Shown: one piece after another, positions 8,434 to 55,873 of the stretch
Position numbering within the stretch: the stretch's first letter is position 1
Layout: the number at the start of each line of letters is the position of its first letter
Assembly (NCBI GenBank): GCA_902464275.1
Contig: CABQIK010000004.1
Location: 18,479 to 82,478, forward strand
Direction of reading: 5' to 3'
Length of the DNA stretch: 64,000 nt
Origin: an uncultured Alphaproteobacteria bacterium
Lineage (GTDB): Bacteria > Pseudomonadota > Alphaproteobacteria > RF32 > CAG-239
Notes under the pieces: model-generated
The model's input: only the letters and a program-made list of their open reading frames with translations
Told to the model about the DNA's origin: nothing
Database searches by the model: none
Made by a program: the position numbers and the translations under genes

Positions 8434-8895
8434 TTAATTTGTCAAGTTGCTTTTTAAGGTTTCAAGTTTTTCAATTTTAGCTTTGGTTTTGGTTATGTAA
8501 TTATTGGCGCTGTTAAATTGTTCGGTTGCGTCTTTGCAGCCTTCAGAGCCGTAAGCGGTGAGGCCGCTTTCCGAGCATTTTAAGTTTTTGTCTTTGGCTA
8601 ACTGTTTAATGGAATCTTTTTTAATTTGATAATTGTTTTTAAGCTCAGGTAATTCAGTGTTTATATATTTAAGCAGATTATCTTTGGCTTCTTGGCATTT
8701 TACGGTTCCGGTTTTGGCCATTTGCTCGGCTGAGCAGGCTTCATCCATTTTTTTGGTTAATTCTACATCTTTGTCATCGGCAAAACAAAAATATGCGATT
8801 GCCAAAACAATAAGAACAACAGTTAAGCACCCGTTGTTTTCTTGCGCTACTTCTGAAATTTTTCCGGTTGCAGTATCTATTTCAATTTTGGACAT
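8434..8895 (-). CDS. hypothetical membrane-anchored coiled-coil protein
   Basis: 153 aa, one N-proximal TM (LTVVLIVLAIAYFCF), Lys/Glu-rich helical remainder. Confidence 0.45.
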   Translation of the reverse strand: MSKIEIDTATGKISEVAQENNGCLTVVLIVLAIAYFCFADDKDVELTKKMDEACSAEQMAKTGTVKCQEAKDNLLKYINTELPELKNNYQIKKDSIKQLAKDKNLKCSESGLTAYGSEGCKDATEQFNSANNYITKTKAKIEKLETLKSNLTN

Positions 8896-9062: not shown

Positions 9063-9256
9063 ATTTGATTGGCTTAATGCTTGTTTTATATTAAATGCCG
9101 TGCTCTTATATTATGACCGCGCACTGTTTTTACCGCTGTCCTTGTCTTATACACCGGTAGCAGACACAATTTATAATCGGAACGATTTTATTTTCAGTTT
9201 TGTGAACCTTTTCTTAAATAAAATCGTTATTAATAATTGTGAACGGAGTTTACAAT

Positions 9257-10462: not shown

Positions 10463-10463
10463 G

Positions 10464-12404
10464 ATGAATATCATTGAACTGAAAAAAATTAATAAATTTT
10501 TCGGTGAAAACGCTAATCGGGTTCATGTGCTTAAAGATGTTAATTTTTCAGTTGAAAAAGGCGATTTTGTTGCCATTATCGGACAATCAGGTTCCGGAAA
10601 ATCCACAATGATGAATATTATAGGGTGTTTAGATGTGCCGACTTCCGGCTCTTATAAAATAAACAGAGTTGAGGTTGGCAAAATGAACAAGGACGAATTG
10701 GCAGATTTGCGCTCTAAAACATTCGGCTTTATTTTTCAGCGTTATAATTTGCTTTCAAGCTTAAAAGCTGATGAGAATGCCGCGCTGCCGGCGGTTTATT
10801 TGGGGCTTAATGCTGAAGCTCGCAATAAACGGGCGGTGGAATTGTTAAAAAAACTTGAGCTTGGCGATAAAGTTAACAACAAACCGAACGAACTTTCCGG
10901 CGGACAGCAGCAACGCGTGAGTATTGCCCGCGCTTTAATGAACGGCGGCGAAATTATTTTGGCAGATGAACCAACCGGCGCGCTTGATTCAAAAAGTGGC
11001 GAGCGGGTTATGGAAATTATTAAAGAGTTGCACAAGCAGGGACATACCATAATTTTGGTAACCCATGACAGCCATATTGCCGCGCAGGCAAGCAGAATTA
11101 TTGAAATTAAAGACGGGCAGGTGGTGTCAGACACGCGCAAGTCAGACACTATATATCCGGTGGCGGAAAAGGTTGAGCACAATAAAAAAAGCAAGTTTGA
11201 TACATTTAAGTACAGTTTTATGGAATCGTTTAAAATGTCGGTTCATGCCATTTTATCTAATAAAATGCGCTCGCTGTTGACGATGCTCGGTATTATTATC
11301 GGTATTGCTTCCGTGGTTTCGGTGGTGGCTTTGGGTAACGCGTCACAGCAAAAAATTATGGAGCAAATTAATTCTATGGGCACCAATACCATTGATATTT
11401 TGCCGGGAACAGGTTTTGGCGACCGGCGCGCCATGAGAGTGCGTACCTTAAAAATCAGCGACTCTGATTATTTGGGTAAACAAAGCTTTATAGACAATTC
11501 AACCCCGAAAGTTTCCGCTAACGGTAATTTGGTGTATGAAAACCAAGCCTTAACCGCGCAGCTTACAGGAGTAGGCGAGGCGTTTTTTGAAGTTAAAGGA
11601 CGCAAAATTGCTTTAGGACGCATTTTTACGCAAGGCGAGGTTGACGATATGGCCTCGGTGGTTGTAATTGATGATAACACCCGTAAACAGTTGTTTGAAA
11701 ATGATCCTGACCCGATTGGCAAGATTTTAATTTTTAACAAAAAACCGCTGAAAATCATCGGCATTACCGAGCCATACAACGCCCCCGGTCCGATGTCGGA
11801 TTCTATGAACTTGTGGACTCCGTATACGACCGCAATGTATAAAATTAACGGTACTAACGATATTGATTCAATTACGGTAAAAATTAACGATGCGGTAAAT
11901 TCGCAAGTGGCGGAAGAAAGTATTGAAAATATTTTAACCTCACTGCACGGTAAAAAAGACTTTTTTATGATTAATACCGACAGCATTAAGCAAACAGTGG
12001 AAAGCGCAACCAATACCATGAAGCTTTTGATTGCCAGCATTGCGGTAATTTCATTGATTGTCGGCGGTATCGGGGTGATGAATATTATGTTGGTATCGGT
12101 TACCGAGCGTACGCGCGAAATCGGTATCAGAATGGCTATTGGCGCCAAACAAGCCGATATCTTACAGCAGTTTTTAATTGAGGCAGTGTTAATTTGTTTG
12201 GTCGGCGGTTTTATGGGAGTGACGCTCTCATTATTGATAGGCGCCGGATTTAATACTTTTTCGGAAGATTTCGGTATGATTTTTTCAACATCGTCCATAA
12301 TTTTGGCGTTAAGCTGTTCAAGCGCAATCGGTATAATATTCGGATATATGCCGGCAAGAAACGCTTCAAACCTTAATCCTATTGATGCATTAGCGAGTGA
12401 ATAA
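10464..12404 (+). CDS. macB: MacB-type ABC transporter (fused ATPase plus FtsX-like permease)
   Basis: Walker A GQSGSGKST, LSGGQQQRV signature, C-terminal 4-TM permease with a large periplasmic loop. aggag SD; the upstream start in the track overlaps macA. Confidence 0.85.
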   Translation: MNIIELKKINKFFGENANRVHVLKDVNFSVEKGDFVAIIGQSGSGKSTMMNIIGCLDVPTSGSYKINRVEVGKMNKDELADLRSKTFGFIFQRYNLLSSLKADENAALPAVYLGLNAEARNKRAVELLKKLELGDKVNNKPNELSGGQQQRVSIARALMNGGEIILADEPTGALDSKSGERVMEIIKELHKQGHTIILVTHDSHIAAQASRIIEIKDGQVVSDTRKSDTIYPVAEKVEHNKKSKFDTFKYSFMESFKMSVHAILSNKMRSLLTMLGIIIGIASVVSVVALGNASQQKIMEQINSMGTNTIDILPGTGFGDRRAMRVRTLKISDSDYLGKQSFIDNSTPKVSANGNLVYENQALTAQLTGVGEAFFEVKGRKIALGRIFTQGEVDDMASVVVIDDNTRKQLFENDPDPIGKILIFNKKPLKIIGITEPYNAPGPMSDSMNLWTPYTTAMYKINGTNDIDSITVKINDAVNSQVAEESIENILTSLHGKKDFFMINTDSIKQTVESATNTMKLLIASIAVISLIVGGIGVMNIMLVSVTERTREIGIRMAIGAKQADILQQFLIEAVLICLVGGFMGVTLSLLIGAGFNTFSEDFGMIFSTSSIILALSCSSAIGIIFGYMPARNASNLNPIDALASE

Positions 12405-12405
12405 C

Positions 12406-13770
12406 ATGAAAAAGAATATGGTTTTTAAATCTTTGGTTTTAACGTTTTTATTGGCAACGCTCGGCTGCGCGGCAAATAAATACGAATCGCATACGCTTGA
12501 AGATGAGCTCGGGCAATATGACAGCGCGCGTTATAAGGCTGACGGCGAATGGTGGCGCGAATATAACAATGCGGAGCTTAACCGCTTGGTGGAAACGGCG
12601 CTACAAAAAAATCCTGATTATTTGCGCGCGGCGATAAATATTAATAAAGAACTTTATAGTTTAAAGTTGCAAACGCTTGATTTGTTTCCGACTTTAGCGG
12701 GCAAGCTTAACGCTTCTTCGCAGAGTGAAGTTAAGCGCACCGATAATTTTTCAAGCAATTTTTCAGGCGAGCTCGGCTTAACGTATGAAGTTGATTTGTA
12801 CGGTAAAATTCGTAATTTGCAAACTGCGCAGGAATTTGAATATAAAGCGACTGAACAAGATAAAGAATCGGCGCGTTTGAGCCTTGTCAACAGTGTGGTT
12901 GATTTGTATTTTAATTTGGCATACTTAAACAATGCGATTGCTTTAACCGAAAAGAACATCGCGCTTTATCAAAATTTGTATAATATATCGGCGCAAAAAT
13001 ACCAAAGCGGCAAAACTGACGACATAGAATATTTGCAAACTAAGCAAAGCCTACTCTCAGAAGAAAATAAACTGCTTGATTTACAAACGTCATTTAAAGA
13101 ACAAGAACGCAGTTTGCGCAATATTTTAAGCGCTAAGCCCGATGAAGATTTAAATTTAGAGTTTATCGGCCTTATAGAGCAAAAGTCGCTTAATGTTAAT
13201 ATGGAAACGCCGCTTGCGGTGCTTGCTAAGCGTCCGGATTTGCTTGCCGGTCAATATCGGTTGGAAAAAGCGTTTAAAAACTTAAAAGCCGAAGATAAAA
13301 ACTGGTATCCGACCATTTCACTCAAAGGGGCGATTAATTCGGCTTCTGACAAGGCGCGCACTACGTTTGATTTTCCATACTTGCTCGGCAGCGTGGGGGT
13401 TGATTTGCCGTTTTTAGATTGGAACAGAGTTAAAAACAATGTTAAAATTTCGGAGGCAGATTATAATTTGGCGCTGATTGATTTTAAGGATAACTTAAAT
13501 CAGGCTCTAAATGAAGTCGCTTATTATTACTTCGCATATCAAAAAGCAGGACAGCAATATGATAATGTTGAGCAAAATTATAATAATGCCGTAAAAATCA
13601 GCAAATATTATCAGGCACGTTATAATAACGGCAAAATAGAGTTTAAGGATTATTTGGAAGCAATTAATACGGAAAATGAGCTGTATAAAAGTTTAATTGA
13701 GCAAAAATATCAGATAATCAAATATGAAAACTATATCTTTAAGGCCATGGGCGGGAAGTACGGCGCTTAA
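12406..13770 (+). CDS. outer membrane factor lipoprotein (TolC/NodT family)
   Basis: Lipobox LLATLGC; two tandem OEP-type repeats; directly follows macB. Confidence 0.75.
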   Translation: MKKNMVFKSLVLTFLLATLGCAANKYESHTLEDELGQYDSARYKADGEWWREYNNAELNRLVETALQKNPDYLRAAININKELYSLKLQTLDLFPTLAGKLNASSQSEVKRTDNFSSNFSGELGLTYEVDLYGKIRNLQTAQEFEYKATEQDKESARLSLVNSVVDLYFNLAYLNNAIALTEKNIALYQNLYNISAQKYQSGKTDDIEYLQTKQSLLSEENKLLDLQTSFKEQERSLRNILSAKPDEDLNLEFIGLIEQKSLNVNMETPLAVLAKRPDLLAGQYRLEKAFKNLKAEDKNWYPTISLKGAINSASDKARTTFDFPYLLGSVGVDLPFLDWNRVKNNVKISEADYNLALIDFKDNLNQALNEVAYYYFAYQKAGQQYDNVEQNYNNAVKISKYYQARYNNGKIEFKDYLEAINTENELYKSLIEQKYQIIKYENYIFKAMGGKYGA

Positions 13771-14590: not shown

Positions 14591-15610
14591 TTAAGCAACC
14601 AACTTTAAGCCGGTTTCTTGTTTTTCTTTAAAAAAACCAAGCTTACGTTGTACCTCCCAAATAACACGTAAAGCATTGAGAGCATTTTCTCCGGTAATAC
14701 GAGGAGTTGCCTCGCCTCTGATACAAGCCGTAAAGTGGCTGAGCTCGGCGCTTAACGGTTGATTGGTAGGAATAAAGAGCTGTTCAACACTGCCTTTTAA
14801 GCCGTAATTCATCCAGTCAGGGATGCTTTCTTGGTTAACATAAGGCATACGTCCTTGCGAGTGAACGTTAATGCTTTGATTGATAAAGTCCATATCAATG
14901 TAGTTGGTGTCAGTGGTGACAGTTAAAGTGCGCACGCGGGCTTGAGTGATACGGCTCGCCGTTAAGTTGGCGGTAGCGCCGTTTGCAAATTCAAGCAAAG
15001 CGGAAATGTAATCTTTACCTTCCGGTTTGTCGGCGGTTTTAACCGAGCAAGCCTGAACATTAACAACCGGAGATTTAACTAAAGACTGAATAACTTCAAC
15101 GTCGTGAATCATTAAGTCCATAGCAACGTCAACATCGGTAATACGACCGCTGGCCGCCGACATACGCTGAGCGGTTAAAGAACGAATTTTGGAAGTATCG
15201 GATAAAATTTTGCCCATCTGCTCAACGGCCGGATTAAAGCGTTCAATATGGCCGACCAATAAAGTTACGTTGTTCTTTTTAGCGGCGTTGATTAAGCGCA
15301 TGCACTCATCTTCAGTGGTGGCTAACGGTTTTTCAATTAAGCAGTGAATGCCGTGATTTAAGAAAAACTCGCCAACATCGGCGTGAGTGGTTGAGGTGGT
15401 AACCACGCTGACGGCGTTAACGCTTTTGGCAACTTCTTCCATTGATGAAAAAGCTTTAATGCCAAACATTTCAGCCGCATTTTCAGCCGCTTCCGGAAAA
15501 ATATCATATACGCCGACAAGCTCAACATTAGGCAGATTTTTGTATGTTTTTAAGTGGTTTTTGCCCATAACACCGGCGCCGATAACGGCAACTTTAATGG
15601 TATCAGTCAT
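14591..15610 (-). CDS. Gfo/Idh/MocA-family NAD(P)-dependent oxidoreductase
   Basis: N-terminal Rossmann motif KVAVIGAGVMGKNH; 339 aa. Confidence 0.75.
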   Translation of the reverse strand: MTDTIKVAVIGAGVMGKNHLKTYKNLPNVELVGVYDIFPEAAENAAEMFGIKAFSSMEEVAKSVNAVSVVTTSTTHADVGEFFLNHGIHCLIEKPLATTEDECMRLINAAKKNNVTLLVGHIERFNPAVEQMGKILSDTSKIRSLTAQRMSAASGRITDVDVAMDLMIHDVEVIQSLVKSPVVNVQACSVKTADKPEGKDYISALLEFANGATANLTASRITQARVRTLTVTTDTNYIDMDFINQSINVHSQGRMPYVNQESIPDWMNYGLKGSVEQLFIPTNQPLSAELSHFTACIRGEATPRITGENALNALRVIWEVQRKLGFFKEKQETGLKLVA

Positions 15611-31510: not shown

Positions 31511-31687
31511 AACAAGGCATAAAAATTTAAAAACAAGAGCGGTTTTTAATTAAATTTTTACTTCACAAGGCTAAAAATATATCTGAAGTATAGTATGTTA
31601 CAAAAATGTGAAGATTTTGCCATAATCGGCGGAATATCTGGATTTTTGATGCTTTTTGTGCTACGATACAAAATATATTAAGCAGGC

Positions 31688-32497
31688 GTGCGAGGTAAAA
31701 CTATGTATTTGTGGGTTGTAATAGCAACGTTTATTACCATTTTGCTGTCATATAATTTGTCAGTAAGGCCGGATATGGACAGGGCTTATGCGGAAACGCG
31801 AGCCAGTGTTGCTATTGCCAAATTCAGAGCGTTGCATAACGGGGTCAGAGATTATTTAATTTCAAGAGCGCCGCAGCTGACAGGGCTGACGAGAGTTGAT
31901 TTTTATCCCGGTGACGGCGTTAATATTTCAAAAACCGATGGCGACGGCTCGCAATACAAGGTTTTAACTTATGAGCAAATTAAAAATTATCTGCCGATAG
32001 GTTATGCGCAGGAAGGGAAAACCTTAGACGATGTTGCCAACATTACCGGCGGCGGCAAAATTGTGAGCAAGGTTTTTTGCTTTGCCGATGCAGATACCGA
32101 CGCGCAATGCGTTTCAGGCGTTGACGGCAGTTGTTGCCATATTTCGGCCGATGGCGAAACCGGCGCTAAAATATACGTTGTTACATTTACGCAAATGCCT
32201 ACAAGGTGGATTAATAAAGTTTCAAATTTGCCGAATGCCGATATGATGGCCGCAATGGCGCATGTTCACGGATACGGCCGTCTTTTCGGCTATACTGAAA
32301 CCAGAGCAGGCAAATTGGTTTTGAGCGGCGGCAAAATTGTGCAGAATTATGATAATTACGGCAATCCGATTGGAGCCGAAAAACTTGAACGCTTAGAAAT
32401 TTTTAACGCAATTAAAAACGATACCGATTTTCAAAAATCAGGCTGTGACAAAGAAAATGTTCATTGCTTGTTTGAAATAGAGCAAATTTACGGTTAG
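31688..32497 (+). CDS. hypothetical exported Cys-rich protein with pilin-like N-terminal helix (no canonical prepilin motif)
   Basis: 269 aa; N-terminal hydrophobic helix followed by an amphipathic AETRASVAIAKFRALHNG segment; 8 Cys in the C-terminal half; immediately upstream of the giant pilin-like gene. Confidence 0.5.
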   Translation: MRGKTMYLWVVIATFITILLSYNLSVRPDMDRAYAETRASVAIAKFRALHNGVRDYLISRAPQLTGLTRVDFYPGDGVNISKTDGDGSQYKVLTYEQIKNYLPIGYAQEGKTLDDVANITGGGKIVSKVFCFADADTDAQCVSGVDGSCCHISADGETGAKIYVVTFTQMPTRWINKVSNLPNADMMAAMAHVHGYGRLFGYTETRAGKLVLSGGKIVQNYDNYGNPIGAEKLERLEIFNAIKNDTDFQKSGCDKENVHCLFEIEQIYG

Positions 32498-32507
32498 GAG
32501 AAAACAG

Positions 32508-35500
32508 ATGAAAACGCAATATAAAAACTTTATCAGTAAAGTTAACCAGACCGGTAGCCTTATGATTGAGGCGATGGCGATGTTGGCGTTAATTTCATTG
32601 GTTACGCCAACCCTTTACAAAAAGTCGGCGGAAAGAACCACGGAGTTGCAGGATATTAACACCGCAACCCATGTTCGCACCATTATGAAGGCAGTGGACA
32701 ACTACGTTACCGCCAACTATCAGAGCCTGCTTGATAACAAACTGCGCAATGACGGCTCGGTGTATGAAATTGATTTGAACGATGACAGTTCAGAAGACAG
32801 TATTCATGACTTTTTTCCGTACGGCTATAAATTTGACGATTTAAAAAACTTCGGCATGCCGAAAGTTATGTTAAAAAGACAAGGATTTTCAATTACGTCA
32901 TTTGTGCAGCTGCCTAAAAAGACCGACATCGGCGAAATGCGCGCCGCGCGTATTGCCTCAATGATAGGCAGTAACGGCGGTTATGTTAACAGCGATAAAA
33001 ATGCGTTGGGCGTAGGCGGCGTTTGGAGCTTGAATCAGGCGGATTTAACCTCTTTGGGTTTTGATACCAACAAAGGTTCGGTGGTTGTGGCCTCATCAGA
33101 TGCCATTAACTCGGCCTCAACCGGCGCGCTTGAAAATGATAAATATTTGCAAAGAACTCCGGTTGACCGTCCGGATCAGCTGTGGCGCAACACCATGATT
33201 ACCGACCTTTATATGGGCGGCGTTACCGGTGTGGACGATATGTATAAAATTTTGGGTGTTGACCAGTTAATTATGGGTAGCACCGATAAAACCAACAATT
33301 TGGAAACATTGGTATTGACCGATGCCGCTCAGGGCGGTGGTTCAGCATGGATGGCGGGTACGTTATCAGCCTTGAACAATGCGTTTAAGATTGATGGTAG
33401 CTCGGAAATGCCGATTTTGACCTTAGCCGATGAAGAAGGCACGATTATGTCGGCAGATTCGCGTACTTTTGACTTATTCCCGGAAGCGGACGGCACAGTC
33501 GGGCTTGAAGTTAATCAGCAAGGGCAAAATATAATTAGCGATTATGCCACCACCATTAACAATGATTTAACGGCAACCGGCGATACCTTAGTGGCAAGCG
33601 GCGGTACCGACACCTCGTTTAAGGCAGGTCCGGACGGGCGTTATATTACGGCGGATGCCTCAAAAGTTTTGTTGCAAAACGGGCAGGTGGAAATTTTGGA
33701 TGATGACGGTACTGGCGCGGTAACCAACATTAAGGGCAGAGCTAATATCACCGGTATAACCACGGTGGGTACCACAATTAACCCGGGTGCGAATAGTATG
33801 GAGGGTTTAATTCCTGATTATCAGTTTAAAGTTTACGGCACCGGCAATGCTTATGTGGCAAATGACTTAGTTGTTGGCAACACTTTGTATACTAAAAAAT
33901 TTAATACCGCGGAACTCCATGCCGGCGGCGAAATGTTGGCGGGCGATGACGCTCGTTGGCTGCACGCAACCGCAACCGGCGTTAGAGTTACTGACCCGAC
34001 CGATTCTGCCAATGTCAGAACTCGTATGGAAATTACGGAAAACAGAACCGCTTTGTATAATCAGGACGGGCGTAATTCCGGCGGGGGTGAAATGGTGTTA
34101 GATCAAGGGTCTTCCCGCTTAACCGGAAAAGATATGGTTGAGATGTATACTAATGCGGATAACGGCGAAGTTCAGTTACAAAACAATGCTTTGGTTATCA
34201 GAGGTAAAACCGAGGCGAGCGGCGGAAGAAACGCCGTTATCAGCGCCGATGCCGATACGGTTGATCTTAATGCTAACATTACGTCAGTTAATGACGGCGT
34301 ATTTCAGGTTAGACGTGAAGATAATGCCGCCGGCATGCAGAACAGCTTGTATGTAAACCCGAATGACAATACTAACCAAGGTTTGGTTTTGGCGGAAGCT
34401 AACCGCACCACAGTCAGACCGCGAGGTACTGATGGTATTTTTGATGTTCAGGATGAGGACGGTAAACGAGTTTTGAACGTTATGCCGAACGGGCTTAATG
34501 GCGAAACAGTGAATGTAGGATATAACTCATATACTCGCCCGATTGGTACAGTTGATGTGGATAAAGAAAGTGTTAGTTTCTCAGATGTAACCGGTAATTC
34601 GGCTTATCGGGTTGTTGAAGTTGACCTTGACAGGTCATTGGCGCAAAAAACGGATGATGACAATCCGACGAGAGGAAGCGTTTATATTCGTCGCGGCGCG
34701 GTTGAATTAGAATCGCCAAGCGGCGCCGGATATGAAGCTGATGCCGGTTATGGCTACATTGAAGCCGGACGGTTTGTGGCTAATACTAAATACAATGGTG
34801 TTGATATTGATAATCCGAAAAACGCTTATACATCGGATTATAGCAGTTGGGGAATTAATGCAGACGATGACTATGATCGTTATATGGTCAATCCGGCTTA
34901 TACCTCTGTTATGCATGATATTAAACTCACGACCCGCGGCGGCGCGCGTTTAAGCGATATTTTGCCTGACTTTATCAATAAAGGTATTTATGTGGTAAAC
35001 AACACTTATAAAGATACCGGTTTCAGTCTTAATAGTATTACGGCAACAGCTAGTAATGGCGGTCAGATTTCGGTATCGGTAAACAACTGTAGTGAAAGTG
35101 CATCTAAGTGTATAGACGAAGTCGGCAGTGGTACTTTATCTAATGAAAACCAATGGGCGTCACCGTTTTTGGGTGTGGTGCCGGCGCCGTTATGTCCTCC
35201 GGGGCATGCCCGCGTGATTACGATTACGCCGGCGGGTTTTCAGATGTCACAAGCCGGACAGATGATTAAAAGTAAACATTATGTAGGAGCTAAATCAAAT
35301 AAAAAGGGTAACCGTTTTGTTGTTGATGAAAGGGCAAGCCTGAATGAATTAGGGTTGGTTAATAATATGGATATGGCAGATGATAACCAAACAATTACAG
35401 GCGCTCAGTATCAACATAGTACAATTACGGATTCTGCCGGTAATACTAGAGATCTTTATTACTTAGGCTATGGAAATGAACCTACATTAACTAAGACTCA

Positions 35501-35963
35501 GGGTAGCGGGACGACCACATACGCGCCGCAGCCGCTTTATTTCCAACAAAGCACCTGGCTGAAGAGTAAAGTGCAACCGCAAAATAATGGTCAAGCAGGT
35601 TCATGTAATGAGAGCTTGGGCAGTGGCGAAGGTTGTAAAGACTTTGTCGGTTGGTCGGCGATTATGGGCTTTATTTATCCGGCAAGCTTGTACGACAATA
35701 TTATTAGTGCGGTTGTAGGAAATCCGCCTAAGGATGAAGATGTTTACTGGAACGTCTTTCCGGTTAAAGCCAAAACATTGGAAGCATACGCTACGGTTTA
35801 TTGCTACTTTGACCGTACCAATCTTTATAACTCAGGTATGCAAGATGAGTATACTGATAAGTATGACCAGTTAAACTCTTTCAGAACAGGCCGTACAAAG
35901 CCTACCAACTCTTATACCGAAAGATTGGATGACCCGACCTTAAAGTATAAAAACCCGTGGTAA
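32508..35963 (+). CDS. giant (1151 aa) protein with prepilin-type N-terminal cleavage/methylation motif; putative pilin-like adhesin
   Basis: MKTQYKNFISKVNQTG|SLMIEAMAMLALISLV has G at -1, E at +5 and a 20-residue hydrophobic helix. The rest is Gly/Thr/Asn/Asp-rich and beta-like, with a Cys-containing C-terminal region. SD aggaga. Confidence 0.6.
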   Translation: MKTQYKNFISKVNQTGSLMIEAMAMLALISLVTPTLYKKSAERTTELQDINTATHVRTIMKAVDNYVTANYQSLLDNKLRNDGSVYEIDLNDDSSEDSIHDFFPYGYKFDDLKNFGMPKVMLKRQGFSITSFVQLPKKTDIGEMRAARIASMIGSNGGYVNSDKNALGVGGVWSLNQADLTSLGFDTNKGSVVVASSDAINSASTGALENDKYLQRTPVDRPDQLWRNTMITDLYMGGVTGVDDMYKILGVDQLIMGSTDKTNNLETLVLTDAAQGGGSAWMAGTLSALNNAFKIDGSSEMPILTLADEEGTIMSADSRTFDLFPEADGTVGLEVNQQGQNIISDYATTINNDLTATGDTLVASGGTDTSFKAGPDGRYITADASKVLLQNGQVEILDDDGTGAVTNIKGRANITGITTVGTTINPGANSMEGLIPDYQFKVYGTGNAYVANDLVVGNTLYTKKFNTAELHAGGEMLAGDDARWLHATATGVRVTDPTDSANVRTRMEITENRTALYNQDGRNSGGGEMVLDQGSSRLTGKDMVEMYTNADNGEVQLQNNALVIRGKTEASGGRNAVISADADTVDLNANITSVNDGVFQVRREDNAAGMQNSLYVNPNDNTNQGLVLAEANRTTVRPRGTDGIFDVQDEDGKRVLNVMPNGLNGETVNVGYNSYTRPIGTVDVDKESVSFSDVTGNSAYRVVEVDLDRSLAQKTDDDNPTRGSVYIRRGAVELESPSGAGYEADAGYGYIEAGRFVANTKYNGVDIDNPKNAYTSDYSSWGINADDDYDRYMVNPAYTSVMHDIKLTTRGGARLSDILPDFINKGIYVVNNTYKDTGFSLNSITATASNGGQISVSVNNCSESASKCIDEVGSGTLSNENQWASPFLGVVPAPLCPPGHARVITITPAGFQMSQAGQMIKSKHYVGAKSNKKGNRFVVDERASLNELGLVNNMDMADDNQTITGAQYQHSTITDSAGNTRDLYYLGYGNEPTLTKTQGSGTTTYAPQPLYFQQSTWLKSKVQPQNNGQAGSCNESLGSGEGCKDFVGWSAIMGFIYPASLYDNIISAVVGNPPKDEDVYWNVFPVKAKTLEAYATVYCYFDRTNLYNSGMQDEYTDKYDQLNSFRTGRTKPTNSYTERLDDPTLKYKNPW

Positions 35964-35979
35964 TCGGCACACAAAAACC

Positions 35980-36014
35980 AAACAGCCTCTGATAAAATCA
36001 GAGGCTGTTTTTGG
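35980..36014. terminator. bidirectional intrinsic terminator
   Basis: aaacagcctctg...cagaggctgttttt between convergent genes. Confidence 0.6.
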
Positions 36015-36020
36015 GATAAA

Positions 36021-37421
36021 CTATTTAACAATATTACATTCATTTATCAAAACGAGTTTAGGGTTGGTATGCGCGGCTTCAAGCAAGCGTTTGTTAAACC
36101 CGCTTTTGGAAAATAGGCCATAAGTTAAATCATACCCTTTAAAATCAGGTGTTTGGCATTTTTCAACTAATTTGGCGTAAACATCAATATCAACAGGTTT
36201 GTTATCTTTGTAATATTTACATTCGGCCGCAAAAATGCGTTTGTGGCTTTCGTCAATTGCAACTAAGTCTATTTCAGTGTGTTTGTTCCAATATGCGCCA
36301 ATGCGAGAAGGCACAAAATTAAGTTGTTTTTCATTGCAAAGCTTGGCAAAAATATCGCGGCAGATTTCTTCATAAACAAAAGCAACATGATTATCAATAA
36401 AGTTGGCTTTCAGTTTGTCTTGCACAAAATTTAAATTATCAAGCTCAAGCTCTCCCTTATACGGAAAAACAAACATAAACCAAAAACGCATAAACACGTC
36501 TTTGATAAAATATAAACCTTTACGGCTTTTTTCAGGATTTTTGTCAGTTATCGGCACGCGTTTTTCAAGTAAATATAGTCCTTGCAAGGTTTCAAGATAA
36601 GGGCTTAATTTGTTGCTTTCAGTGGCCATGGCTGAAGATATTTCTGACAGCTTATGGTTATTTTGCGCAATTGCTTTCATTACGGAATAATAGTTTATCG
36701 GCTCTTTAACTTCTTTGTTAAGTAAAAAAGCCGGTTCCTCATATAAAAAACCGTTTTTGTTAAAAATAACACGGGAGATGTTATCGGTTAAAGAATTTTT
36801 ATTGTCAAAAAGCTCCAAATATTTAGGCACGCCGCCGGTTACGGAATAAAGTTCAACCACGTCAGCAAAAGATTTGTGGCGATAATGCTTTTTTATATCT
36901 GAAAAAGCCAGCGGGGCAAGTCTGATTTGAGAAGTGCGGCGTCCGTATAAGGGGCTGTTTTCCGCTAAAACCTGCTTGGTCATCATGTTAATGTATGAAC
37001 CACAGATAATAACCATGATGTTTTGCTTAGATAAAATTTCGTCCCATGCTTTTTGAAAAATAGAAGTAAAAGCCGGATTGGTGTTAACCATATATTGAAA
37101 CTCGTCAAGCACCAGAACTTTGGTTGCCGGATTAGGCATAGCGGCAAACAGCTTAAACAGCTCAAGCCAGTCATCAAAGTTTGCTTTGGCAATAAAAGGC
37201 TGTTTGGAAAATTCCGCCAGATTTTGGGCGAATCTTTTCATGCTTTGCGGTTCCGATTCTTCGGTTGCTAAAAAATAAAGAGCGGGTTTGTTTTTAATAA
37301 ATTCTTGGATTAATGCGGTTTTGCCAATGCGGCGGCGTCCATATAAAACAACGAAAGAGTGTTTGTTGTCATACTCTTGCTCTAAATCTGAAAGTTCTTT
37401 TGTCCTGCCGATAAATTCCAT
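36021..37421 (-). CDS. AAA+ ATPase of the archaeal-ATPase/DUF234 family (orphan)
   Basis: Walker A GRRRIGKT, DEFQ Walker B, C-terminal DUF234-like region; 466 aa. Confidence 0.7.
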   Translation of the reverse strand: MEFIGRTKELSDLEQEYDNKHSFVVLYGRRRIGKTALIQEFIKNKPALYFLATEESEPQSMKRFAQNLAEFSKQPFIAKANFDDWLELFKLFAAMPNPATKVLVLDEFQYMVNTNPAFTSIFQKAWDEILSKQNIMVIICGSYINMMTKQVLAENSPLYGRRTSQIRLAPLAFSDIKKHYRHKSFADVVELYSVTGGVPKYLELFDNKNSLTDNISRVIFNKNGFLYEEPAFLLNKEVKEPINYYSVMKAIAQNNHKLSEISSAMATESNKLSPYLETLQGLYLLEKRVPITDKNPEKSRKGLYFIKDVFMRFWFMFVFPYKGELELDNLNFVQDKLKANFIDNHVAFVYEEICRDIFAKLCNEKQLNFVPSRIGAYWNKHTEIDLVAIDESHKRIFAAECKYYKDNKPVDIDVYAKLVEKCQTPDFKGYDLTYGLFSKSGFNKRLLEAAHTNPKLVLINECNIVK

Positions 37422-44754: not shown

Positions 44755-45774
44755 ATGGCAAAAATTTTCAGTTTTTTGGGAAGCCTCTTAGAGGGACTTC
44801 TTATGGTTGTTGTTTTTTACAACCCGGTGTCGTTTCTTGTTTGGAGTTTTGTTGCTCCGAAAAAAGCCGCCGCGATCATGGTCACCAAAGACGATGACTC
44901 AAAGGTTATGCGCTTTTTGAGCAATCTTCACAAGCCGTTGACTCATCTGTATCCGATGTACATCAAAAAGCACTTCATGAAAGCTTTGGGGATGAGGAAT
45001 TATTCCGCCAACGCTCAGGTGAAAGCTTTTAGAGCTTTGAACGAATCGGACGTTCCTGCAAAAGCGGTTAAGCTTGTTGAACAAATGAGCGATGTTGCCG
45101 TTTCCAAGCTTTGGGATGACAACATGTTGCGGCATAGGAGTTACAATCCGGTGATTACCTATGCGGTTACTGAGTCGGGAAAGTCGTTGATGACTCGTCA
45201 GCTCAAAGTGTTGTTTGAGAGGGAGGATTATGATAGTTTTGGCAACTATGCCAAGAATCATACTCTGAGCAAAGCAGCATTAGAGTTGCTCATTGAGCGG
45301 ATGGAGCAAAAGTCAGAGCAAAAGTCAGAAGACAAAGAGTCTTTTGATAAGTTGCAAGACGTTCTGTTCAGCCAGATTGAAAAGAACGGCCTTCCTGCAA
45401 ACTTGGTGGAGAAAGCAGTAAAAGCTTGCGGGCAGAATCAGCTGGCGATTACAAAATCTTTTGAAGTCTTCCGCCAGAAAACCTTGGTTCTGTCAAGGGA
45501 CTATAAGGCGTTTTCAGAACTTGTAAAATACAAAAAACTGGCGCCGTCTGTGGAAGCGTTGATGGACAGAGAACAGTACAACAGCTATCTGGAAGCAGGC
45601 AACCATCTTAGTGACGAAGCAATTCGTGAATTTATAGCTCGCGAAAATATGGCAATATGCGATCTTATATTTAAGAACGAAAAGCTTTCAGCGGTGGCTG
45701 TTTTAATGGCTGAAGCCAATCCGAAATTTGCGCTGAAGCTTCCGGCCGGAATTAGTCTGATTTCAAAATGTTAA
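44755..45774 (+). CDS. hypothetical membrane-anchored alpha-helical protein (insert gene 1)
   Basis: 339 aa; N-terminal hydrophobic hairpin (FSFLGSLLEGLLMVVVFY / VSFLVWSFVAP); helical remainder with a KSEQKSEQKSEDKE linker. No SD. Codon usage differs from flanking genes (ctt/ctc/agg/tca enriched, NCG depleted). Confidence 0.5.
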   Translation: MAKIFSFLGSLLEGLLMVVVFYNPVSFLVWSFVAPKKAAAIMVTKDDDSKVMRFLSNLHKPLTHLYPMYIKKHFMKALGMRNYSANAQVKAFRALNESDVPAKAVKLVEQMSDVAVSKLWDDNMLRHRSYNPVITYAVTESGKSLMTRQLKVLFEREDYDSFGNYAKNHTLSKAALELLIERMEQKSEQKSEDKESFDKLQDVLFSQIEKNGLPANLVEKAVKACGQNQLAITKSFEVFRQKTLVLSRDYKAFSELVKYKKLAPSVEALMDREQYNSYLEAGNHLSDEAIREFIARENMAICDLIFKNEKLSAVAVLMAEANPKFALKLPAGISLISKC

Positions 45775-45778
45775 GGAT

Positions 45779-46315
45779 ATGACGAATTTTGAAATTATGC
45801 TGGGCGGACTCTCGTTAGTCTTGTTCGGCGGAGCCTTCACCTTGCTGTTGTGGGGTGATTTTCAAAAGGCCAAGACTTTTAAAATCGTTCTGATTCTGCT
45901 CATGGCTGTCAGCTCGGTTGGCGCGGTTTACGCCATATACAGCCAACTGAAACTTGCTGCGCAAATAGCAGAGAAGTATGTGATTGTCGCATTAGAAAAC
46001 GAATATTCTACGGTGAATGAAACCGATGTGTTCGGAATTGATGCTGATTCTTACACCATTCTGCCTACCGGTAACAAGCTTTTGAAGAAAACCTTGTACG
46101 GGAATTTGGAGTGGAGAGATACTTCTTTTGTGCAGCAAATTGACTCATCAGGTAACAGCAAAACAATTTGTTTTGTAAAAACGCGAGTCAAAAGAGTTAA
46201 ACTCGGCAGCGCAGAAGCGACAAGACCGAATCAACCCGGCGCAGAAATAAAAGTAAAGTGCCGGTATAAAGTCGGGGATACGGTAAAGGTCCGCGGTGAC
46301 CGCATCATTCCTTGA
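45779..46315 (+). CDS. hypothetical 2-TM protein with beta-rich C-terminal domain (insert gene 2)
   Basis: 178 aa; TM hairpin then a soluble domain ending in RYKVGDTVKVRGDRIIP; 4 nt after gene 1. Confidence 0.5.
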   Translation: MTNFEIMLGGLSLVLFGGAFTLLLWGDFQKAKTFKIVLILLMAVSSVGAVYAIYSQLKLAAQIAEKYVIVALENEYSTVNETDVFGIDADSYTILPTGNKLLKKTLYGNLEWRDTSFVQQIDSSGNSKTICFVKTRVKRVKLGSAEATRPNQPGAEIKVKCRYKVGDTVKVRGDRIIP

Positions 46316-46328
46316 TTTTAGTTCTTAT

Positions 46329-46358
46329 AAAAAAACTCCTCGTTTGAGGAGTTTTTTT
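46329..46358 (+). terminator. intrinsic terminator inside the insert
   Basis: aaaaactcctcg tttg aggagttttttt. Confidence 0.6.
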
Positions 46359-46425
46359 AATGCCCTCTTGATTTATTTAAAAGTTCTCGTTATAAGGTAA
46401 TCAGAAACTCAAATTTTTATGATAT

Positions 46426-47031
46426 ATGTATGAATTTTTAAAAATTATGATGGTTGTTTGCGAAATCGCGATGATCATCGGTTTTGTGTTTTTTGTTGCT
46501 TTCCAAGCTTATTTTTGGAGCGACAGAGATCATGCTAAAACCTTTTTTATGTTTGCGCTGTACTCATTGCTTGGCGTGAGTATTTGCGGATGGTTTATTC
46601 ATGGCTGCGCGCTTAATGCAAAAGCTATTGTTTCTGCGGTTGCGGTATTGCTGATTATGGCTCAATTTTGCTTTTTTAAGGAGCGGTGGCAAGAATTTTA
46701 TGCCAGAGAGCGGTCACCGTTTAAAAAGCTGAAGAAAGCTCTTATTTTTACAATTTTAGTATTGATATTGGGCTTTTCAGGTGCTTACGGTTACTGCAAA
46801 AAGCAAAAAGCTGATTATCAACGCGCGCATGCAGATATGTATGTGGTTGTCGGCTTTGGAATAAGAGCCGCAGATGATGGCATGAGCTCAGTATATGATA
46901 CTGATGAAGACCATTTGTTTGTGGCAATCAGACCCGTAGACTGCTATAAAGCAAAACCGAGAGTGTTGATATCAAGAAAATATCATCTCGGGGATACAGT
47001 ACTGATGTTTCACAATAAACCGGTGTCGTAA
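46426..47031 (+). CDS. hypothetical 4-TM protein (insert gene 3)
   Basis: 201 aa; 4 predicted TM helices; C-terminal about 60-aa domain ending in KYHLGDTVLMFHNKPVS; non-host codon usage; no SD. Confidence 0.5.
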   Translation: MYEFLKIMMVVCEIAMIIGFVFFVAFQAYFWSDRDHAKTFFMFALYSLLGVSICGWFIHGCALNAKAIVSAVAVLLIMAQFCFFKERWQEFYARERSPFKKLKKALIFTILVLILGFSGAYGYCKKQKADYQRAHADMYVVVGFGIRAADDGMSSVYDTDEDHLFVAIRPVDCYKAKPRVLISRKYHLGDTVLMFHNKPVS

Positions 47032-47579
47032 TGTATGTATCAGCGCTTGCAGGCATGATTATTTGCGGAACGTTTTTGTTGCTCGCCTTTATATTTTATG
47101 TACGCGCGCAATGGGTGTTTTGGTTTTATTACGGAGAAGAGCTGTATTGGTTAGTAGGTTTTATTATGGTGCTTTTGTTCAGCGCCTCCTATGCCGATAT
47201 GCTTTTTCCGCTTGATGGAACTGATTTGCTAAGCTCCGCTTTGATTTTTGTGTTTGTTTCCGCCGCGCAATATGTGTGCGGTCAGGTACGATTAGAGGAA
47301 ATGCGCAATACGCCTCCGTGGTGTTGGGAGCATTATGCCAAAAAATTTATGCCGCTGTTTATTGTTGCCGTTGTTGCGTTGCGCTTTGCTTTTGCCGGAT
47401 GTTTGGAGTATCGGGAAAATTATCGTTGGAATCATGCCGAATCGGTTGATGAAAATTCGGAAGTAAAGATTTTTAACGGTAGGCAAATCAAGCAACCGGT
47501 TTCAAAGTTTAAGCTCGGGTATCAGGAAATTACCTCAGCGGTTGAACGCGAAAAACAACGTAAAACTAAAAAGAAGTGA
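47031..47579 (+). CDS. hypothetical 4-TM protein, paralog of gene 3 (insert gene 4)
   Basis: 182 aa; same 4-TM topology and similar N-terminal region (FVAFQAYFW vs FYVRAQWVFW); start overlaps the previous stop (TAATG); codon usage closer to the host. Confidence 0.5.
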   Translation: MYVSALAGMIICGTFLLLAFIFYVRAQWVFWFYYGEELYWLVGFIMVLLFSASYADMLFPLDGTDLLSSALIFVFVSAAQYVCGQVRLEEMRNTPPWCWEHYAKKFMPLFIVAVVALRFAFAGCLEYRENYRWNHAESVDENSEVKIFNGRQIKQPVSKFKLGYQEITSAVEREKQRKTKKK

Positions 47580-51144: not shown

Positions 51145-52332
51145 TTATAAGTCGCGGCTTATTTCATTAATTAAAATTCCGCGCACCCATCTTAACCCTT
51201 CAACCGGAAGCTTGTTGCCGAATATAATGGTGCCTTTGTCTGAAACAATGGCTAAAAAATAACTTTCGGAAGTGGGGGTAAAATTAATGTCTATGCCTTT
51301 TAATTCGCTGAATTTGACCACACCGTCACGAACCCGCAGAAAACCGATTTTGCGGAAAAGGTAAATATGGTCTTTGCTGATGATGATAATGTCTTTGCTG
51401 ATAAGGCTTAAAAAAGCATAAATTATAACCGAGAGTAAAAAAGCGTAAAAGATGATTACGGCATCATACGGAAGGTGCTGAATAAGAATATCATGATTTA
51501 TACCCGCGTATATAAGCAAACTGCCGAAAGCGGCAATGGCAAACATGCTTAAAAAGCTGTATGCGTCAAAAAACAATTTGCGGATTTTTATCATTTTTTC
51601 ACCGCTTTTACGGCTTTTGAAGCTGATATATGAAGGTTTTTCCTGATGGTAAGCAAAATCTTTGGGCAGGTGCCACTTAGCCACAACCTCGGGGTATGAG
51701 CGGCTGAGGTCGTTAAAATTGTGCGAAACCATCCCTTTTTCAGAAATGGTCAGCGCGGGCATGCGCAGTATTTGCGCGTATTCTTTCCACAATTTGCGAA
51801 TGTGGTGTTTGCTTGTGCTGATATAAAGAGGTATGGTTTTGGCCGGGTCTTTGTGATAAAGTTCTATAATAAATTTGTTTTTGTTGAAAAGTCCGTACTG
51901 ATAAAATTTTACCCGCAAGCGCACGCCGGAATAATTGTAAAGACGCTCGGAAAAGCTGTAACTTTTGCTGAACAACGGCTGATTTTTGACCATAACCGTA
52001 TCGCCGTCAAAAAAGATGATTTTGTAACGCAACATGCGAATAAAAGCATTTAAAATCAGTCCGATGCCCAAAACAAGCAGCAAAGAGTTAAAAACTATCG
52101 GCGGCACAAAGGTGTGAATTTTAATGGTAGTGCGCGGCAGATTGTTTTCTAAATCAGCAACACCGTTGAATGAAAAGTTAAAAATCTGGTATAGCCCGAT
52201 AAGGCACAGCAATGCTCCGCAAAGAGCCGAAATTATTAAAATCAGCCGTGAAAACCTGTCAACTCCGCGGGTCGGAAGTTTGCTGATGTCAAGTTTAAAA
52301 CTGTGACTGTAATGATCGGGGTATTGCTGCAT
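51145..52332 (-). CDS. hypothetical membrane protein with two TM-hairpin plus PH-like modules (YdbT/bPH-like)
   Basis: 395 aa; two repeats of a TM pair followed by a soluble domain of about 100 aa (FFDGDTVMVKNQ…; ISKDHIYLFRK…). Confidence 0.5.
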   Translation of the reverse strand: MQQYPDHYSHSFKLDISKLPTRGVDRFSRLILIISALCGALLCLIGLYQIFNFSFNGVADLENNLPRTTIKIHTFVPPIVFNSLLLVLGIGLILNAFIRMLRYKIIFFDGDTVMVKNQPLFSKSYSFSERLYNYSGVRLRVKFYQYGLFNKNKFIIELYHKDPAKTIPLYISTSKHHIRKLWKEYAQILRMPALTISEKGMVSHNFNDLSRSYPEVVAKWHLPKDFAYHQEKPSYISFKSRKSGEKMIKIRKLFFDAYSFLSMFAIAAFGSLLIYAGINHDILIQHLPYDAVIIFYAFLLSVIIYAFLSLISKDIIIISKDHIYLFRKIGFLRVRDGVVKFSELKGIDINFTPTSESYFLAIVSDKGTIIFGNKLPVEGLRWVRGILINEISRDL

Positions 52333-55294: not shown

Positions 55295-55333
55295 GCATTG
55301 CGGGTTATACTCTTAAAAAACAAAGGAGATAAT

Positions 55334-55873
55334 ATGAAAAATATTTGGTTAAGTCTGGCGGCGGTGGCTGTTTTGGGAGCTTGTTCGTTCGGAAATGATG
55401 ACGAGAATCATTTTGTGGTGGTTTCAGGCGAAGACGATACTTCTTATTTGAAGGATATTGACGCTTGTCCGAAAGTGCATATCAGACAAAATGATACTAA
55501 AATTGTGCAAATTGACGAGTATCATGAGTTGTTTACCATTGAGGCCGTCGGTTATGAAGGGCATTGCTATTATAATAAAAAGCTCGGTAAAGATAAGGCG
55601 GTGGTTAAACCCAAATTTAAAATTACCCGCATGGAAGAAAGCGATGTTACCGATGTGCATTTTTCATATTACCTTGAAACGGTTGAAGGGCCGGTTAATT
55701 ATTTAGGTAAAAAAACGTATTTTGCCGAAGCTCATATTCCGCTCGGGTCAGAGGTGTTAGATTACACTGCGGAAGGCGGCGAGCTTACCATTCCGGTTCC
55801 GGGAACGTATAATATGGATATTTATTTGGGGCTTAAAGCCAAAGCTCAAGATTTGGAATATAAAACAAAATAA
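55334..55873 (+). CDS. hypothetical lipoprotein
   Basis: MKNIWLSLAAVAVLGAC lipobox; SD aaggaga. Confidence 0.5.
   Translation: MKNIWLSLAAVAVLGACSFGNDDENHFVVVSGEDDTSYLKDIDACPKVHIRQNDTKIVQIDEYHELFTIEAVGYEGHCYYNKKLGKDKAVVKPKFKITRMEESDVTDVHFSYYLETVEGPVNYLGKKTYFAEAHIPLGSEVLDYTAEGGELTIPVPGTYNMDIYLGLKAKAQDLEYKTK

Follow-up and report, generated by a model that had tools for sequence, protein, structure and literature searches.

How can a protein of 1151 residues that begins like a prepilin be put to use where no pilus machinery is encoded nearby? In the 64-kb stretch of DNA from an uncultured gut alphaproteobacterium that is analyzed here ("the window"), the gene for this giant protein (G) follows one for a smaller, pilin-like partner (P). 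Both open reading frames were found as given in a preliminary description of this DNA (31688-32497, + strand, 269 aa from a GTG codon; 32508-35963, + strand, 1151 aa), which had called G prepilin-like. That assignment is confirmed and sharpened by the reading frames, homologs and alignments presented below: G (32508..35963, +) is best read as a minor pilin of the type IVb PilV/TcpB/CofB class, modular in build and of giant size.

The locus and its distribution

The start codon of G is located 10 nt past the stop codon of P. In at least 72 of 78 related loci, which reach down to about 28% identity, the gene immediately 5' of G and on its strand was P; besides P, any single neighbor of G was common to 21 loci at most. 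The two genes presumably form a conserved operon. They are flanked by genes for a nitroreductase, ProRS and PheST, a chromosomal housekeeping setting whose synteny is kept between species. A consensus scan returned a promoter-like site (31597..31626, +; GTTACA, an 18-nt spacer and TG-CATAAT) whose position would fit the start of the two-gene operon; the site is weak (9 of 12 positions matched), and shuffled controls hold more such sites than the region does. A perfect 14-bp hairpin (35980..36010, no strand assigned), situated between the convergent genes for G and an ATPase_2/DUF234 protein, is probably a bidirectional terminator.

More than 276 full-length homologs of G were retrieved; the 120 matches listed were 1083-1209 aa long and 38-100% identical. 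Relatives were present in 265 genomes of the GTDB collection (one genome per species), and the family comprised 672 clusters at 50% identity. On these three counts, the family is beyond chance. Its members measured ca. 930-1454 aa in intact loci and up to 1471 aa among cluster representatives. The hosts were related gut and rumen Alphaproteobacteria, amounting to hundreds of species; all records retrieved were MAG or uncultured entries, with no cultured isolate among them, and the existing annotation was "hypothetical protein" only.

The N-terminus of G

G begins with MKTQYKNFISKVNQTG, followed by SLMIEAMAMLALISLVTPTLY, and features Gly16, Glu21 and a 21-residue hydrophobic stretch. The preliminary description had read this N-terminus as a class III (prepilin peptidase) signal, and the family bears that reading out. 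Residues 1-16 (32508..32555, +) constitute a predicted leader peptide ending in an invariant Gly16, after which cleavage is predicted to occur. No homolog with an intact N-terminus had lost the G-x4-E motif: Gly(-1) and Glu(+5) were invariant in all 75 such members (from 78 species loci). The helix after Gly(-1) was nearly invariant across the family alignments, and leaders with an unambiguous start codon had 10-17 aa. G accordingly presents what is expected of a type IV pilin, i.e. a short charged leader, Gly(-1), about 20 hydrophobic residues and Glu at +5 (the leader ending in NQTG, before SLMIEAMAMLALISLVTPTLY). When all six frames of the window were inspected, the combination of G-x4-E and a hydrophobic N-terminus was found in G alone.

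A PilV-like pilin module

The leader is followed by a PilV-like pilin module (residues 17-262; 32556..33293, +) made up of an alpha1-N helix that includes Glu21 (+5), a long alpha1 and a beta-sheet, with the conserved motifs YLPYG and ASMIGSNGGY. The fold predicted for this N-domain is that of a type IVb pilin, with an extended N-terminal alpha-helix on an antiparallel beta-sheet.

An alignment of 26 diverse N-domains was compared with PilV from a Salmonella plasmid using hhalign (probability 97.7%, E = 1.6e-12, 224 columns), and residues 11-258 of G were aligned to residues 3-234 of PilV. The Pfam model Shufflon_N (PF04917) matched G with E = 2.7e-6 and 27.5 bits, which is exactly the curated cutoff; 9 of the 26 family members were matched, the best at E = 3.5e-7. 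With the mature N-domain of G as a tblastn query, 783 plasmid records were matched; the 15 matches listed were all to genes that carry the annotation "pilus tip adhesin PilV", and for most of them E was about 3e-4 and 94-97% of the query was aligned. In the reverse direction, PilV was compared by phmmer with 1428 ORFs from the related loci and the window; the matches were confined to the G family (17 members at 3e-12 to 6e-7). The PilV sequence used in the comparison itself has no Glu at +5. Judged by sequence, homology to the constant N-terminal part of PilV covers residues 11-258 of G.

The stalk and the C-terminal domain

The more than 1100 residues that follow the N-terminal helix of G had been characterized as Gly/Thr/Asn-rich and beta-like, with a cysteine-containing C-terminal region; the composition (G 9.6%, T 8.9%, D 8.3%, N 8.2%) and the placement of the six cysteines, all at residues 861-1099, agree. 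From alignments, composition and the AlphaFold2 model, a variable beta-rich stalk was delimited (residues 263-720; 33294..34667, +) that is rich in Gly, Thr, Asn and Asp and contains no cysteine. Its length and sequence differ between species, with many insertions and deletions in the alignments, and no sequence repeats were found in it. It was modeled as short beta-strands with moderate pLDDT, and its resemblance to fibers and spikes is weak.

An alignment of 25 diverse members served to define the conserved C-terminal domain (residues 721-1151; 34668..35963, +), which holds all six cysteines and ends in RLDDPTLKYKNPW. Within it lies a near-invariant 34-residue block (residues 795-828, NPAYTSVMHDIKLTTRGGARLSDILPDFINKGIY; 34890..34991, +), almost unchanged in 24 of the 25 members, down to ca. 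28% overall identity; AlphaFold2 modeled it at low confidence (pLDDT 30-45). The model of the whole protein was poor (mean pLDDT 59.8), and no significant structural match to the stalk or the C-terminal domain was obtained. Neither the C-terminal domain by itself nor the ca. 890 residues of stalk and C-terminal domain together matched Pfam, PDB sequences, phages or plasmids, and the domain did not resemble the C-terminal part of PilV. Within G, conservation is highest in this distal domain, which is odd for an adhesin that is exposed and may hint at a structural role or some other one.

The partner protein

Homologs of P begin at MYLW, and just upstream of the corresponding ATG most relatives carry an in-frame stop codon and a Shine-Dalgarno-like purine run. 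The start of P is therefore likely at 31703 (31703..32497, +), and the protein has 264 rather than 269 residues. Its cysteines number six, not eight as first counted; across 51 homologs, four are invariant and two nearly so. P had been portrayed as pilin-like and devoid of a cleavage motif, and it was indeed modeled with a pilin fold: there is no leader peptide, and the protein starts straight with a hydrophobic helix (MYLWVVIATFITILLSY), which is followed by a long helix and then a beta-sheet. A YLPxG(Y/F) motif is common to P and the N-domain of G.

P and R64-type PilM (PF07419; PDB 3eoi and 3hg9) are alike in architecture, in fold and in having the hydrophobic helix first. PilM, whose function is poorly defined, has ca. 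143 residues, whereas P has 264 with six conserved cysteines, and no sequence or profile similarity was detected between them (hhalign probability 0.1%; PF07419 matched by 0 of 51 P homologs). P is thus PilM-like as a small pilin-fold protein with its hydrophobic helix first, encoded beside a pilV-like gene; pilV and pilM adjoin in the PAPI-1 and Burkholderia Tfp7 operons (PMC3984277).

Pilus genes in the window and in related genomes

As had been stated earlier, the window contains no pilB/pilC/pilD, tad or gsp genes; 35 ORFs were scanned with Pfam, and the remaining genes were named through synteny with a related locus (L001). The other genes of the window encode housekeeping, efflux and signaling functions only, and no gene for an A24 prepilin peptidase is among them. 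Genes for an assembly ATPase, a platform protein or a secretin were absent from the window and from the 10 kb around G in all 78 relatives. The earlier term orphan holds for the locus in the window, and it suits the 78 related loci fetched as well.

Nine PilS/bundlin look-alike genes were found within 10 kb of G, in seven loci; the one scanned, from a related genome, matched Pfam pilin models at E = 4e-17 and 3e-12. Genes for A24 prepilin peptidases occurred ca. 3 kb from G in two related loci (L031 and L034). The peptidase had 714 homologs, and the named ones among the matches listed came mostly from MAG Alphaproteobacteria, with a few other labels. In related genomes, the peptidase genes are also solitary among housekeeping genes; it is therefore nothing unusual in this lineage for a pilus gene to be an orphan.

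Proposed role of the pair

We consider it fairly probable that a type IVb pilus like that of R64 has P and G as pilin-type components and that its other genes are scattered around the chromosome. An A24 prepilin peptidase would cut off the short leader of G behind Gly16, and the hydrophobic helix alpha1, whose +5 residue is Glu, would serve as an inner-membrane anchor before docking into the pilus. Because some 890 bulky residues come after the pilin module, G would be confined to the pilus tip. There it would probably prime assembly, like TcpB and CofB, and, as a presumed adhesin, would show the variable beta-rich stalk and the conserved cysteine-containing C-terminal domain. The latter would bind a conserved ligand or keep the tip complex together. 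For P, pairing with the pilin module of G is probable, in the role of a tip or priming co-subunit or of a membrane-bound assembly factor. Several points weigh against this proposal: the lack of genes for an assembly ATPase, platform protein and secretin in the window and within 10 kb of G in the relatives; the failure of N_methyl and the NCBIfam pilin models to match; the PilV sequence compared, in which +5 is not Glu; the high conservation of the distal C-terminal domain; and the poor model of G, with no significant structural match to its stalk or C-terminal domain. A tip subunit of ca. 120 kDa, possibly trimeric, would moreover have to pass through a secretin.

Alternative explanations

G could also keep its pilin-type N-terminus but operate inside the cell envelope rather than in a surface pilus, as the large cap subunit of a short pseudopilus like that of type II secretion (compare GspK) or, together with P, as a membrane-anchored periplasmic fiber. 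We regard this as unlikely: the closest sequence relative of G is PilV, a surface pilus tip adhesin, and not a GspK-type pseudopilin; related genomes encode PilS/bundlin-type major pilins; the Gly/Thr/Asn-rich beta stalk of variable length, within the ca. 890 residues past the module, looks like an extracellular fiber; and the window has no gsp genes.

A bolder and slightly more doubtful possibility is that the pair is the core of an unrecognized surface organelle that defines the lineage, with a new activity in the C-terminal domain, including NPAYTSVMHDIKLTTRGGARLSDILPDFINKGIY. A type IVb-derived filament would then carry a fiber of ca. 120 kDa, and the pair would be a core need of the lineage's lifestyle. 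Rather than plain adhesion, the domain could have an enzymatic or membrane-active function or could bind a conserved host or microbial target, by analogy with fibers of epibiotic or predatory bacteria.

It is very improbable that G is a conventional large adhesin with an ordinary signal anchor or Sec signal in which G-x4-E is coincidental. Such a protein would be in keeping with the lack of machinery nearby and with the failure of N_methyl (Pfam PF07963), TIGR02532 and the NCBIfam pilin models to match full-length G or its N-domain. The lineage's own PilS-type pilin, however, scores only E = 0.04 on N_methyl, and the model is therefore insensitive for such type IVb-like sequences. An ordinary N-terminus is contradicted by the invariant Gly and Glu and by the PilV homology from tblastn and hhalign, which extends over about 225-250 residues, far past the helix; it also disagrees with the predicted type IVb pilin fold and with the absence of a second such N-terminus from the window.

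Equally improbable is that a conjugative element has G as its PilV adhesin for mating-pair formation, as in the R64 thin pilus, for although PilV is the closest known relative, the gene occurs in 265 species genomes among syntenic housekeeping neighbors (ProRS, PheST and the nitroreductase), its C-terminus is conserved rather than switchable, and the window holds no transfer genes, no Rci-type or other recombinase and, in place of shufflon sfx repeats, only short repeats at chance level.

Comparison with known systems

PilV of the R64/IncI1 thin pilus and related type IVb pili (PF04917), to whose N-terminal ca. 250 residues G is homologous, shares with G a short leader whose last residues are NQ(x)G, a hydrophobic helix in which a proline is similarly placed, the motifs (Y/H)LPxG(F/Y) and SNxxGxGGY(V), and a size exceeding that of the major pilin. 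PilV has about 430-480 residues, as against 1151 in G (about 930-1471 in the family), and the C-terminal ca. 890 residues of G are unrelated to it. R64 PilV has a shufflon and switchable C-termini, whereas G has no shufflon, Rci or switchable ends. PilV is encoded in pil operons (pilL-pilV) on plasmids, such as those of enterobacteria, or on genomic islands; G is chromosomal, outside any pil operon, in Alphaproteobacteria.

TcpB of the Vibrio cholerae TCP and CofB of ETEC CFA/III belong to the large minor pilins of type IVb systems; they prime assembly and form trimers at the tip. G is 2-3 times larger, without detected sequence similarity to them; it has no evident secreted partner comparable to TcpF or CofJ, and the membrane-anchored, pilin-fold P is present instead. 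PilY1/PilC of type IVa pili resemble G in size (ca. 1000-1200 aa) and presumed tip location, a likeness already drawn in the preliminary description. PilY1 is no pilin, and its C-terminal domain is a beta-propeller, whereas G brings its own pilin module. G was rejected as a PilY1/PilC adhesin, given this module, the lack of a Pfam match to the PilY1/PilC domain and the lack of a predicted propeller.

Minor pilins of large, modular build are already established at the tips of other pili (PMC8179133); modular type IV pilins include S. sanguinis PilB and PilC and Thermus ComZ (Raynaud et al. 2021, PMC8179133). Like these proteins, G has a pilin module with grafted non-pilin modules, for which exposure at the tip is expected. 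In that 2021 survey, 860 residues represented the "most extreme case" (PMC8179133), compared to 1151 in G and up to about 1471 in its family. The grafted part of G has no database domain match, and G would therefore have escaped a survey of that type.

Implications

The results furnish a first functional assignment for a family annotated as hypothetical only: a putative tip protein of a type IVb pilus, accompanied by a pilin-fold partner that has no leader. G widens the known size range of pilins, and the locus represents a pair like R64-type pilV/pilM that resides in the chromosome, away from any pil operon. The conserved C-terminal domain of ca. 430 residues, which has no known relatives, is a target for structural and binding studies. 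The gut and rumen Alphaproteobacteria that carry the family are widespread in humans and animals, and, if the pilus is real, it would be a candidate means of attachment in the gut for these bacteria.

Gene pair and reading frames

G, the giant protein of 1151 aa, is encoded at 32508-35963 (+), and the ORF of P, the small pilin-fold protein encoded just upstream, lies on the same strand at a distance of 10 nt. A weak promoter-like site (31597-31626) is located 5' of the pair, and a perfect 14-bp hairpin (35980-36010) is located 3' of it. As first called, the P ORF spanned 31688-32497 (+) and encoded 269 aa from a GTG, the length given in the preliminary description. The homologues of P begin at MYLW, five codons past this GTG, and most related loci have, immediately 5' of the MYLW ATG, a stop codon in the same frame and a ribosome-binding site rich in purines; P was therefore reassigned as a protein of 264 aa (31703-32497) with its hydrophobic helix at the very start. 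Its cysteines number six, four of them invariant and two nearly so, rather than the eight counted earlier.

The N-terminus of G reads MKTQYKNFISKVNQTG, followed after the predicted cleavage point by SLMIEAMAMLALISLVTPTLY. The prepilin-type signal noticed earlier, i.e. G-x4-E followed by a hydrophobic stretch, was borne out and was unique to G among the ORFs in all frames of the 64-kb window. Gly, Thr, Asp and Asn are abundant in G, and all six of its cysteines are located within residues 861-1099.

The N-terminal module of G

Judged by homology, the N-terminal module of G (residues 17-262, after a predicted 16-residue leader) is a PilV-type pilin. The 75 family members whose N-terminus is intact all follow the pattern [QE]-x-G/[SGT]-[LMI]-[ML]-[IV]-E-A-[MLI]-A-M-L-x-L-[IV]-x-x-V-T-P-x-x-Y-[KR]-K (slash, predicted cleavage), and Gly(-1) and Glu(+5) are unchanged in all 75, as expected if homologues keep the motif. 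Full-length proteins yielded nothing useful against Pfam and NCBIfam; a match to Pfam Shufflon_N (PF04917) emerged only for the N-domain by itself. For the first 320 residues of G, this match (E 2.7e-6, 27.5 bits) was at the curated cutoff, and it was obtained for nine of 26 diverse members (best E 3.5e-7). When the mature N-domain was compared with 72,556 plasmids using tblastn, 783 records were matched; the 15 matches listed all fall on genes annotated as shufflon-system pilus tip adhesin PilV, most with 94-97% query coverage, ca. 26% identity and E of ca. 3e-4. An hhalign comparison of the 26 diverse N-domains with one plasmid PilV aligned G 11-258 with PilV 3-234 over 224 columns, at a probability of 97.7% (E 1.6e-12). 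When the full set of 1428 ORFs called across the loci and the window was searched with the same PilV by phmmer, only the G family matched.

The canonical N_methyl and TIGR02532 models did not match G. N_methyl is weak even on the lineage's own PilS-type pilin (E 0.04), and NCBIfam gave the 26 N-domains only faint matches to the pilin-type N-termini of ComGG, GspG and ComGE (E 0.025-0.14).

Stalk and C-terminal domain of G

Residues 263-720 are rich in Gly, Thr, Asn and Asp, contain no cysteine, and are predicted to form many short strands. Insertions and deletions are abundant in this region across the family, whose members range from ca. 930 to ca. 1470 aa. Residues 721-1151 are highly conserved. 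They include a 34-residue block, NPAYTSVMHDIKLTTRGGARLSDILPDFINKGIY (G 795-828), that 24 of 25 diverse members preserve almost without change; AlphaFold2 confidence for it is low despite this conservation.

The C-terminal part had no match in Pfam, the C-domain and stalk had none in phages and plasmids, and the C-domain showed no similarity to the C-terminal part of PilV. Whole-family and C-domain profiles gave only noise against PDB sequences. A Foldseek search of the PDB with the whole G model returned no match below E 0.001; fibre-like matches to T5 pb4, T4 gp34 and Bd2133 are suggestive only. The weak structural matches (phage fibres and spikes, VgrG/Rhs and OspA-like sheets) indicate only a predicted elongated, beta-rich shape. 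Neither shufflon-type repeats nor internal protein repeats were found.

The partner protein

The AlphaFold2 model of P is confident (pLDDT 87.6, pTM 0.82) and features a helix at residues 2-16, a break, a helix at 22-54, and then a beta-sheet. Like PilM of the R64 type (MPLIFYLLGIFAVV...), P is without a leader peptide and without Gly(-1)/Glu(+5), but the two have no similarity at the sequence level (hhalign; Pfam across 51 P members). A comparison of P with plasmids gave only noise. A YLPxG(Y/F) motif is common to P and the N-domain of G (hhalign E 8.5e-5, 21 columns); PilV has HLPAGF at this place. The pairing of P with G fits the arrangement of the R64-type system in PAPI-1 and Burkholderia Tfp7, two variants in which pilV is a direct neighbour of pilM (PMC3984277).

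Distribution and linkage

More than 276 homologues of G were found; the 120 listed are nearly all full-length and 38-100% identical, and the few named ones among them are all labelled hypothetical protein. No Pfam domain is on record for any of those listed. In a collection with one genome per species, relatives of G were found in 265 genomes, essentially all MAGs from the guts of humans, rodents, rabbits, chickens and ruminants; Candidatus Scatocola is among them. Judging by how homologues and related contigs are named, the source organism is an uncultured gut alphaproteobacterium. A profile of the N-domain matched 672 clusters at E <= 0.001 (205 at E <= 1e-30) among 1.84 billion cluster representatives. 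Only the G family appeared among the 150 matches listed; the weaker matches may include PilV-type proteins.

In no fewer than 72 of the 78 loci fetched, the P gene immediately precedes G in the same orientation, and this adjacency holds down to ca. 28% identity of G. The other neighbours vary, the commonest occurring in 21 of the 78 loci. Because P is nearly constant and the other neighbours are not, P and G form a conserved cassette that moved around the chromosome as a unit.

In a Scatocola-like clade (L032, L038, L040-L043, L047, L049, L056, L057, L060, L061, L063, L064, L068, L071, L076 and L079; L numbers denote loci from related genomes, with their own coordinates), the pair stands head-to-head with flagellar genes, in the region of ca. 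5 kb either side of position 10000. These neighbours include FliL (Pfam 3.6e-7), a gene that is FliM-like by eye only, and a gene for a protein with an MgtE_N-like domain. Next on the same strand is a conserved 254-aa gene (cluster 2) whose product resembles a signal peptide at its N-terminus and lacks a Pfam match; this gene could be a third operon member in this clade. Four contigs with the cassette come from assemblies that bear the label Lachnospiraceae, Bacteroidaceae or Eubacterium (L009, CAVBCV010000001.1; L031, CAVIDY010000002.1; L074, CAVKTH010000008.1; L069, CAKREC010000086.1); these bins are probably mislabelled or contaminated.

Pilus genes in the lineage

The earlier observation that the window lacks pilus, Tad and type II secretion genes stood: none was found by Pfam scans of 35 ORFs and synteny with L001, and R64 pilus proteins had no phmmer match among the ORFs called there. 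Pilus machinery was likewise absent within 10 kb of the G gene in the 78 related loci. Over 1.56 Mb of these loci, no pilus ATPase, platform or secretin gene was found by regex and phmmer, and R64 PilN, PilO2, PilP, PilQ and PilR had no match. The Walker-A candidates were not pilus ATPases but ClpX, UvrB and a ComM-like Mg-chelatase.

PilS and Bundlin are type IVb major pilin families. Nine genes for pilins of this type (ca. 200-230 aa) were found within 10 kb of G in seven of the 78 loci, among them L012:579-1280, L017:16694-17425, L026:7358-8062, L028:1239-1931 and 14855-15577, L044:14976-15575, and L072:123-782 and 7442-8290. The one scanned matched PilS (4e-17) and Bundlin (3e-12) in Pfam. 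Their N-termini read G/RSM[IV]E[MI]LGVLAI..., with an unusual Arg at +1. They stand singly among housekeeping genes and, by a rough estimate, are commoner near G than expected if they were placed at random.

In L031 (16588-17301, -) and L034 (15733-16446, -), a gene for an A24 prepilin peptidase (Pfam 2.7e-16) is located ca. 3 kb from G; others are at 10001-10717 in L081/L082 and at 10001-10702 in L084. The peptidase has 714 homologues, and most of the named ones among the matches listed bear the label "MAG: prepilin peptidase [Alphaproteobacteria bacterium]"; a few are labelled otherwise. In the related genomes these genes are short (ca. 235 aa) and isolated among housekeeping genes, outside pilus operons. 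Because pilin and peptidase genes also stand alone, scattered pilus genes seem to be the rule in this lineage, and the isolated location of P and G is no argument against a pilus role. Nothing relevant emerged from a literature search on the pili of RF32-type gut Alphaproteobacteria.

Surroundings in the window

Other window genes, assigned by Pfam and by synteny with L001, encode tRNA synthetases, RF-1, RodZ, PtsP, BamB, a GGDEF protein, transketolase, glycogen phosphorylase and a complete MacAB-TolC-type tripartite efflux set (9239-13770, +: HlyD-family adaptor, MacB-type ABC/FtsX fusion, OEP outer-membrane factor). A second OEP gene is at 62471-63823. Between the G gene and ProRS is an ATPase_2 (PF01637) and DUF234 gene (36021-37421, -); at the syntenic position in L001 it is missing and ProRS directly follows G, so it is probably a recent insertion in the source genome. 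No Pfam match is on record for four consecutive genes at 44755-47579 (+; 339, 178, 201 and 182 aa). All but the first are predicted to encode membrane proteins, and the block is kept in the closest relatives (clusters 36-38) and also in L001. Examined as possible pilins, they were not pilin-like. Six ORFs of 122-572 aa were without a Pfam match at E <= 1e-5 (2678-4396, 4445-4813, 8434-8895, 51145-52332, 55298-55873 and 58644-59753).

Proposed mechanism and alternatives

We infer that a prepilin peptidase would cut the 16-residue leader off G and that the PilV-like module would then enter a type IVb pilus made of PilS-like subunits. Its ca. 890 bulky residues would restrict G to the pilus tip. 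By analogy with TcpB and CofB, for which a priming role has been demonstrated (PMC5207764; PMC6048534; PMC8179133), G would probably be the priming subunit. The variable stalk would project the conserved, Cys-containing C-terminal domain, which may bind a conserved ligand or else keep the tip complex together. Leaderless P would probably pack its nearly invariant N-terminal helix on that of G. Its role would be that of a co-subunit that caps the tip, much as GspK, which lacks Glu5, does in the pseudopilus, or else that of a PilM-like factor for assembly at the membrane.

It is unlikely that G instead acts inside the envelope, in a pseudopilus or an anchored fibre. The chromosomal housekeeping context of G, its species-wide conservation and the lack of a shufflon and a recombinase all contradict its reading as the PilV of a conjugative element. 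Its reading as an ordinary adhesin with a signal anchor conflicts with the homology to PilV and with the N-terminal motif, which is invariant.

Read as a tip pilin with its partner, P and G do not amount to a novel type of system, because large modular minor pilins have precedents: the catalogue of PMC8179133 comprises over 1200 proteins in 264 architectures, with a maximum size of 860 residues. What is new is that G would be a PilV-class pilin of two to three times the usual size that carries a large domain without known relatives and is coupled to a leaderless pilin-fold partner, and that this pair, which is placed outside any pil operon and carries no annotation in the databases searched, is conserved throughout an entire lineage of uncultured gut bacteria.
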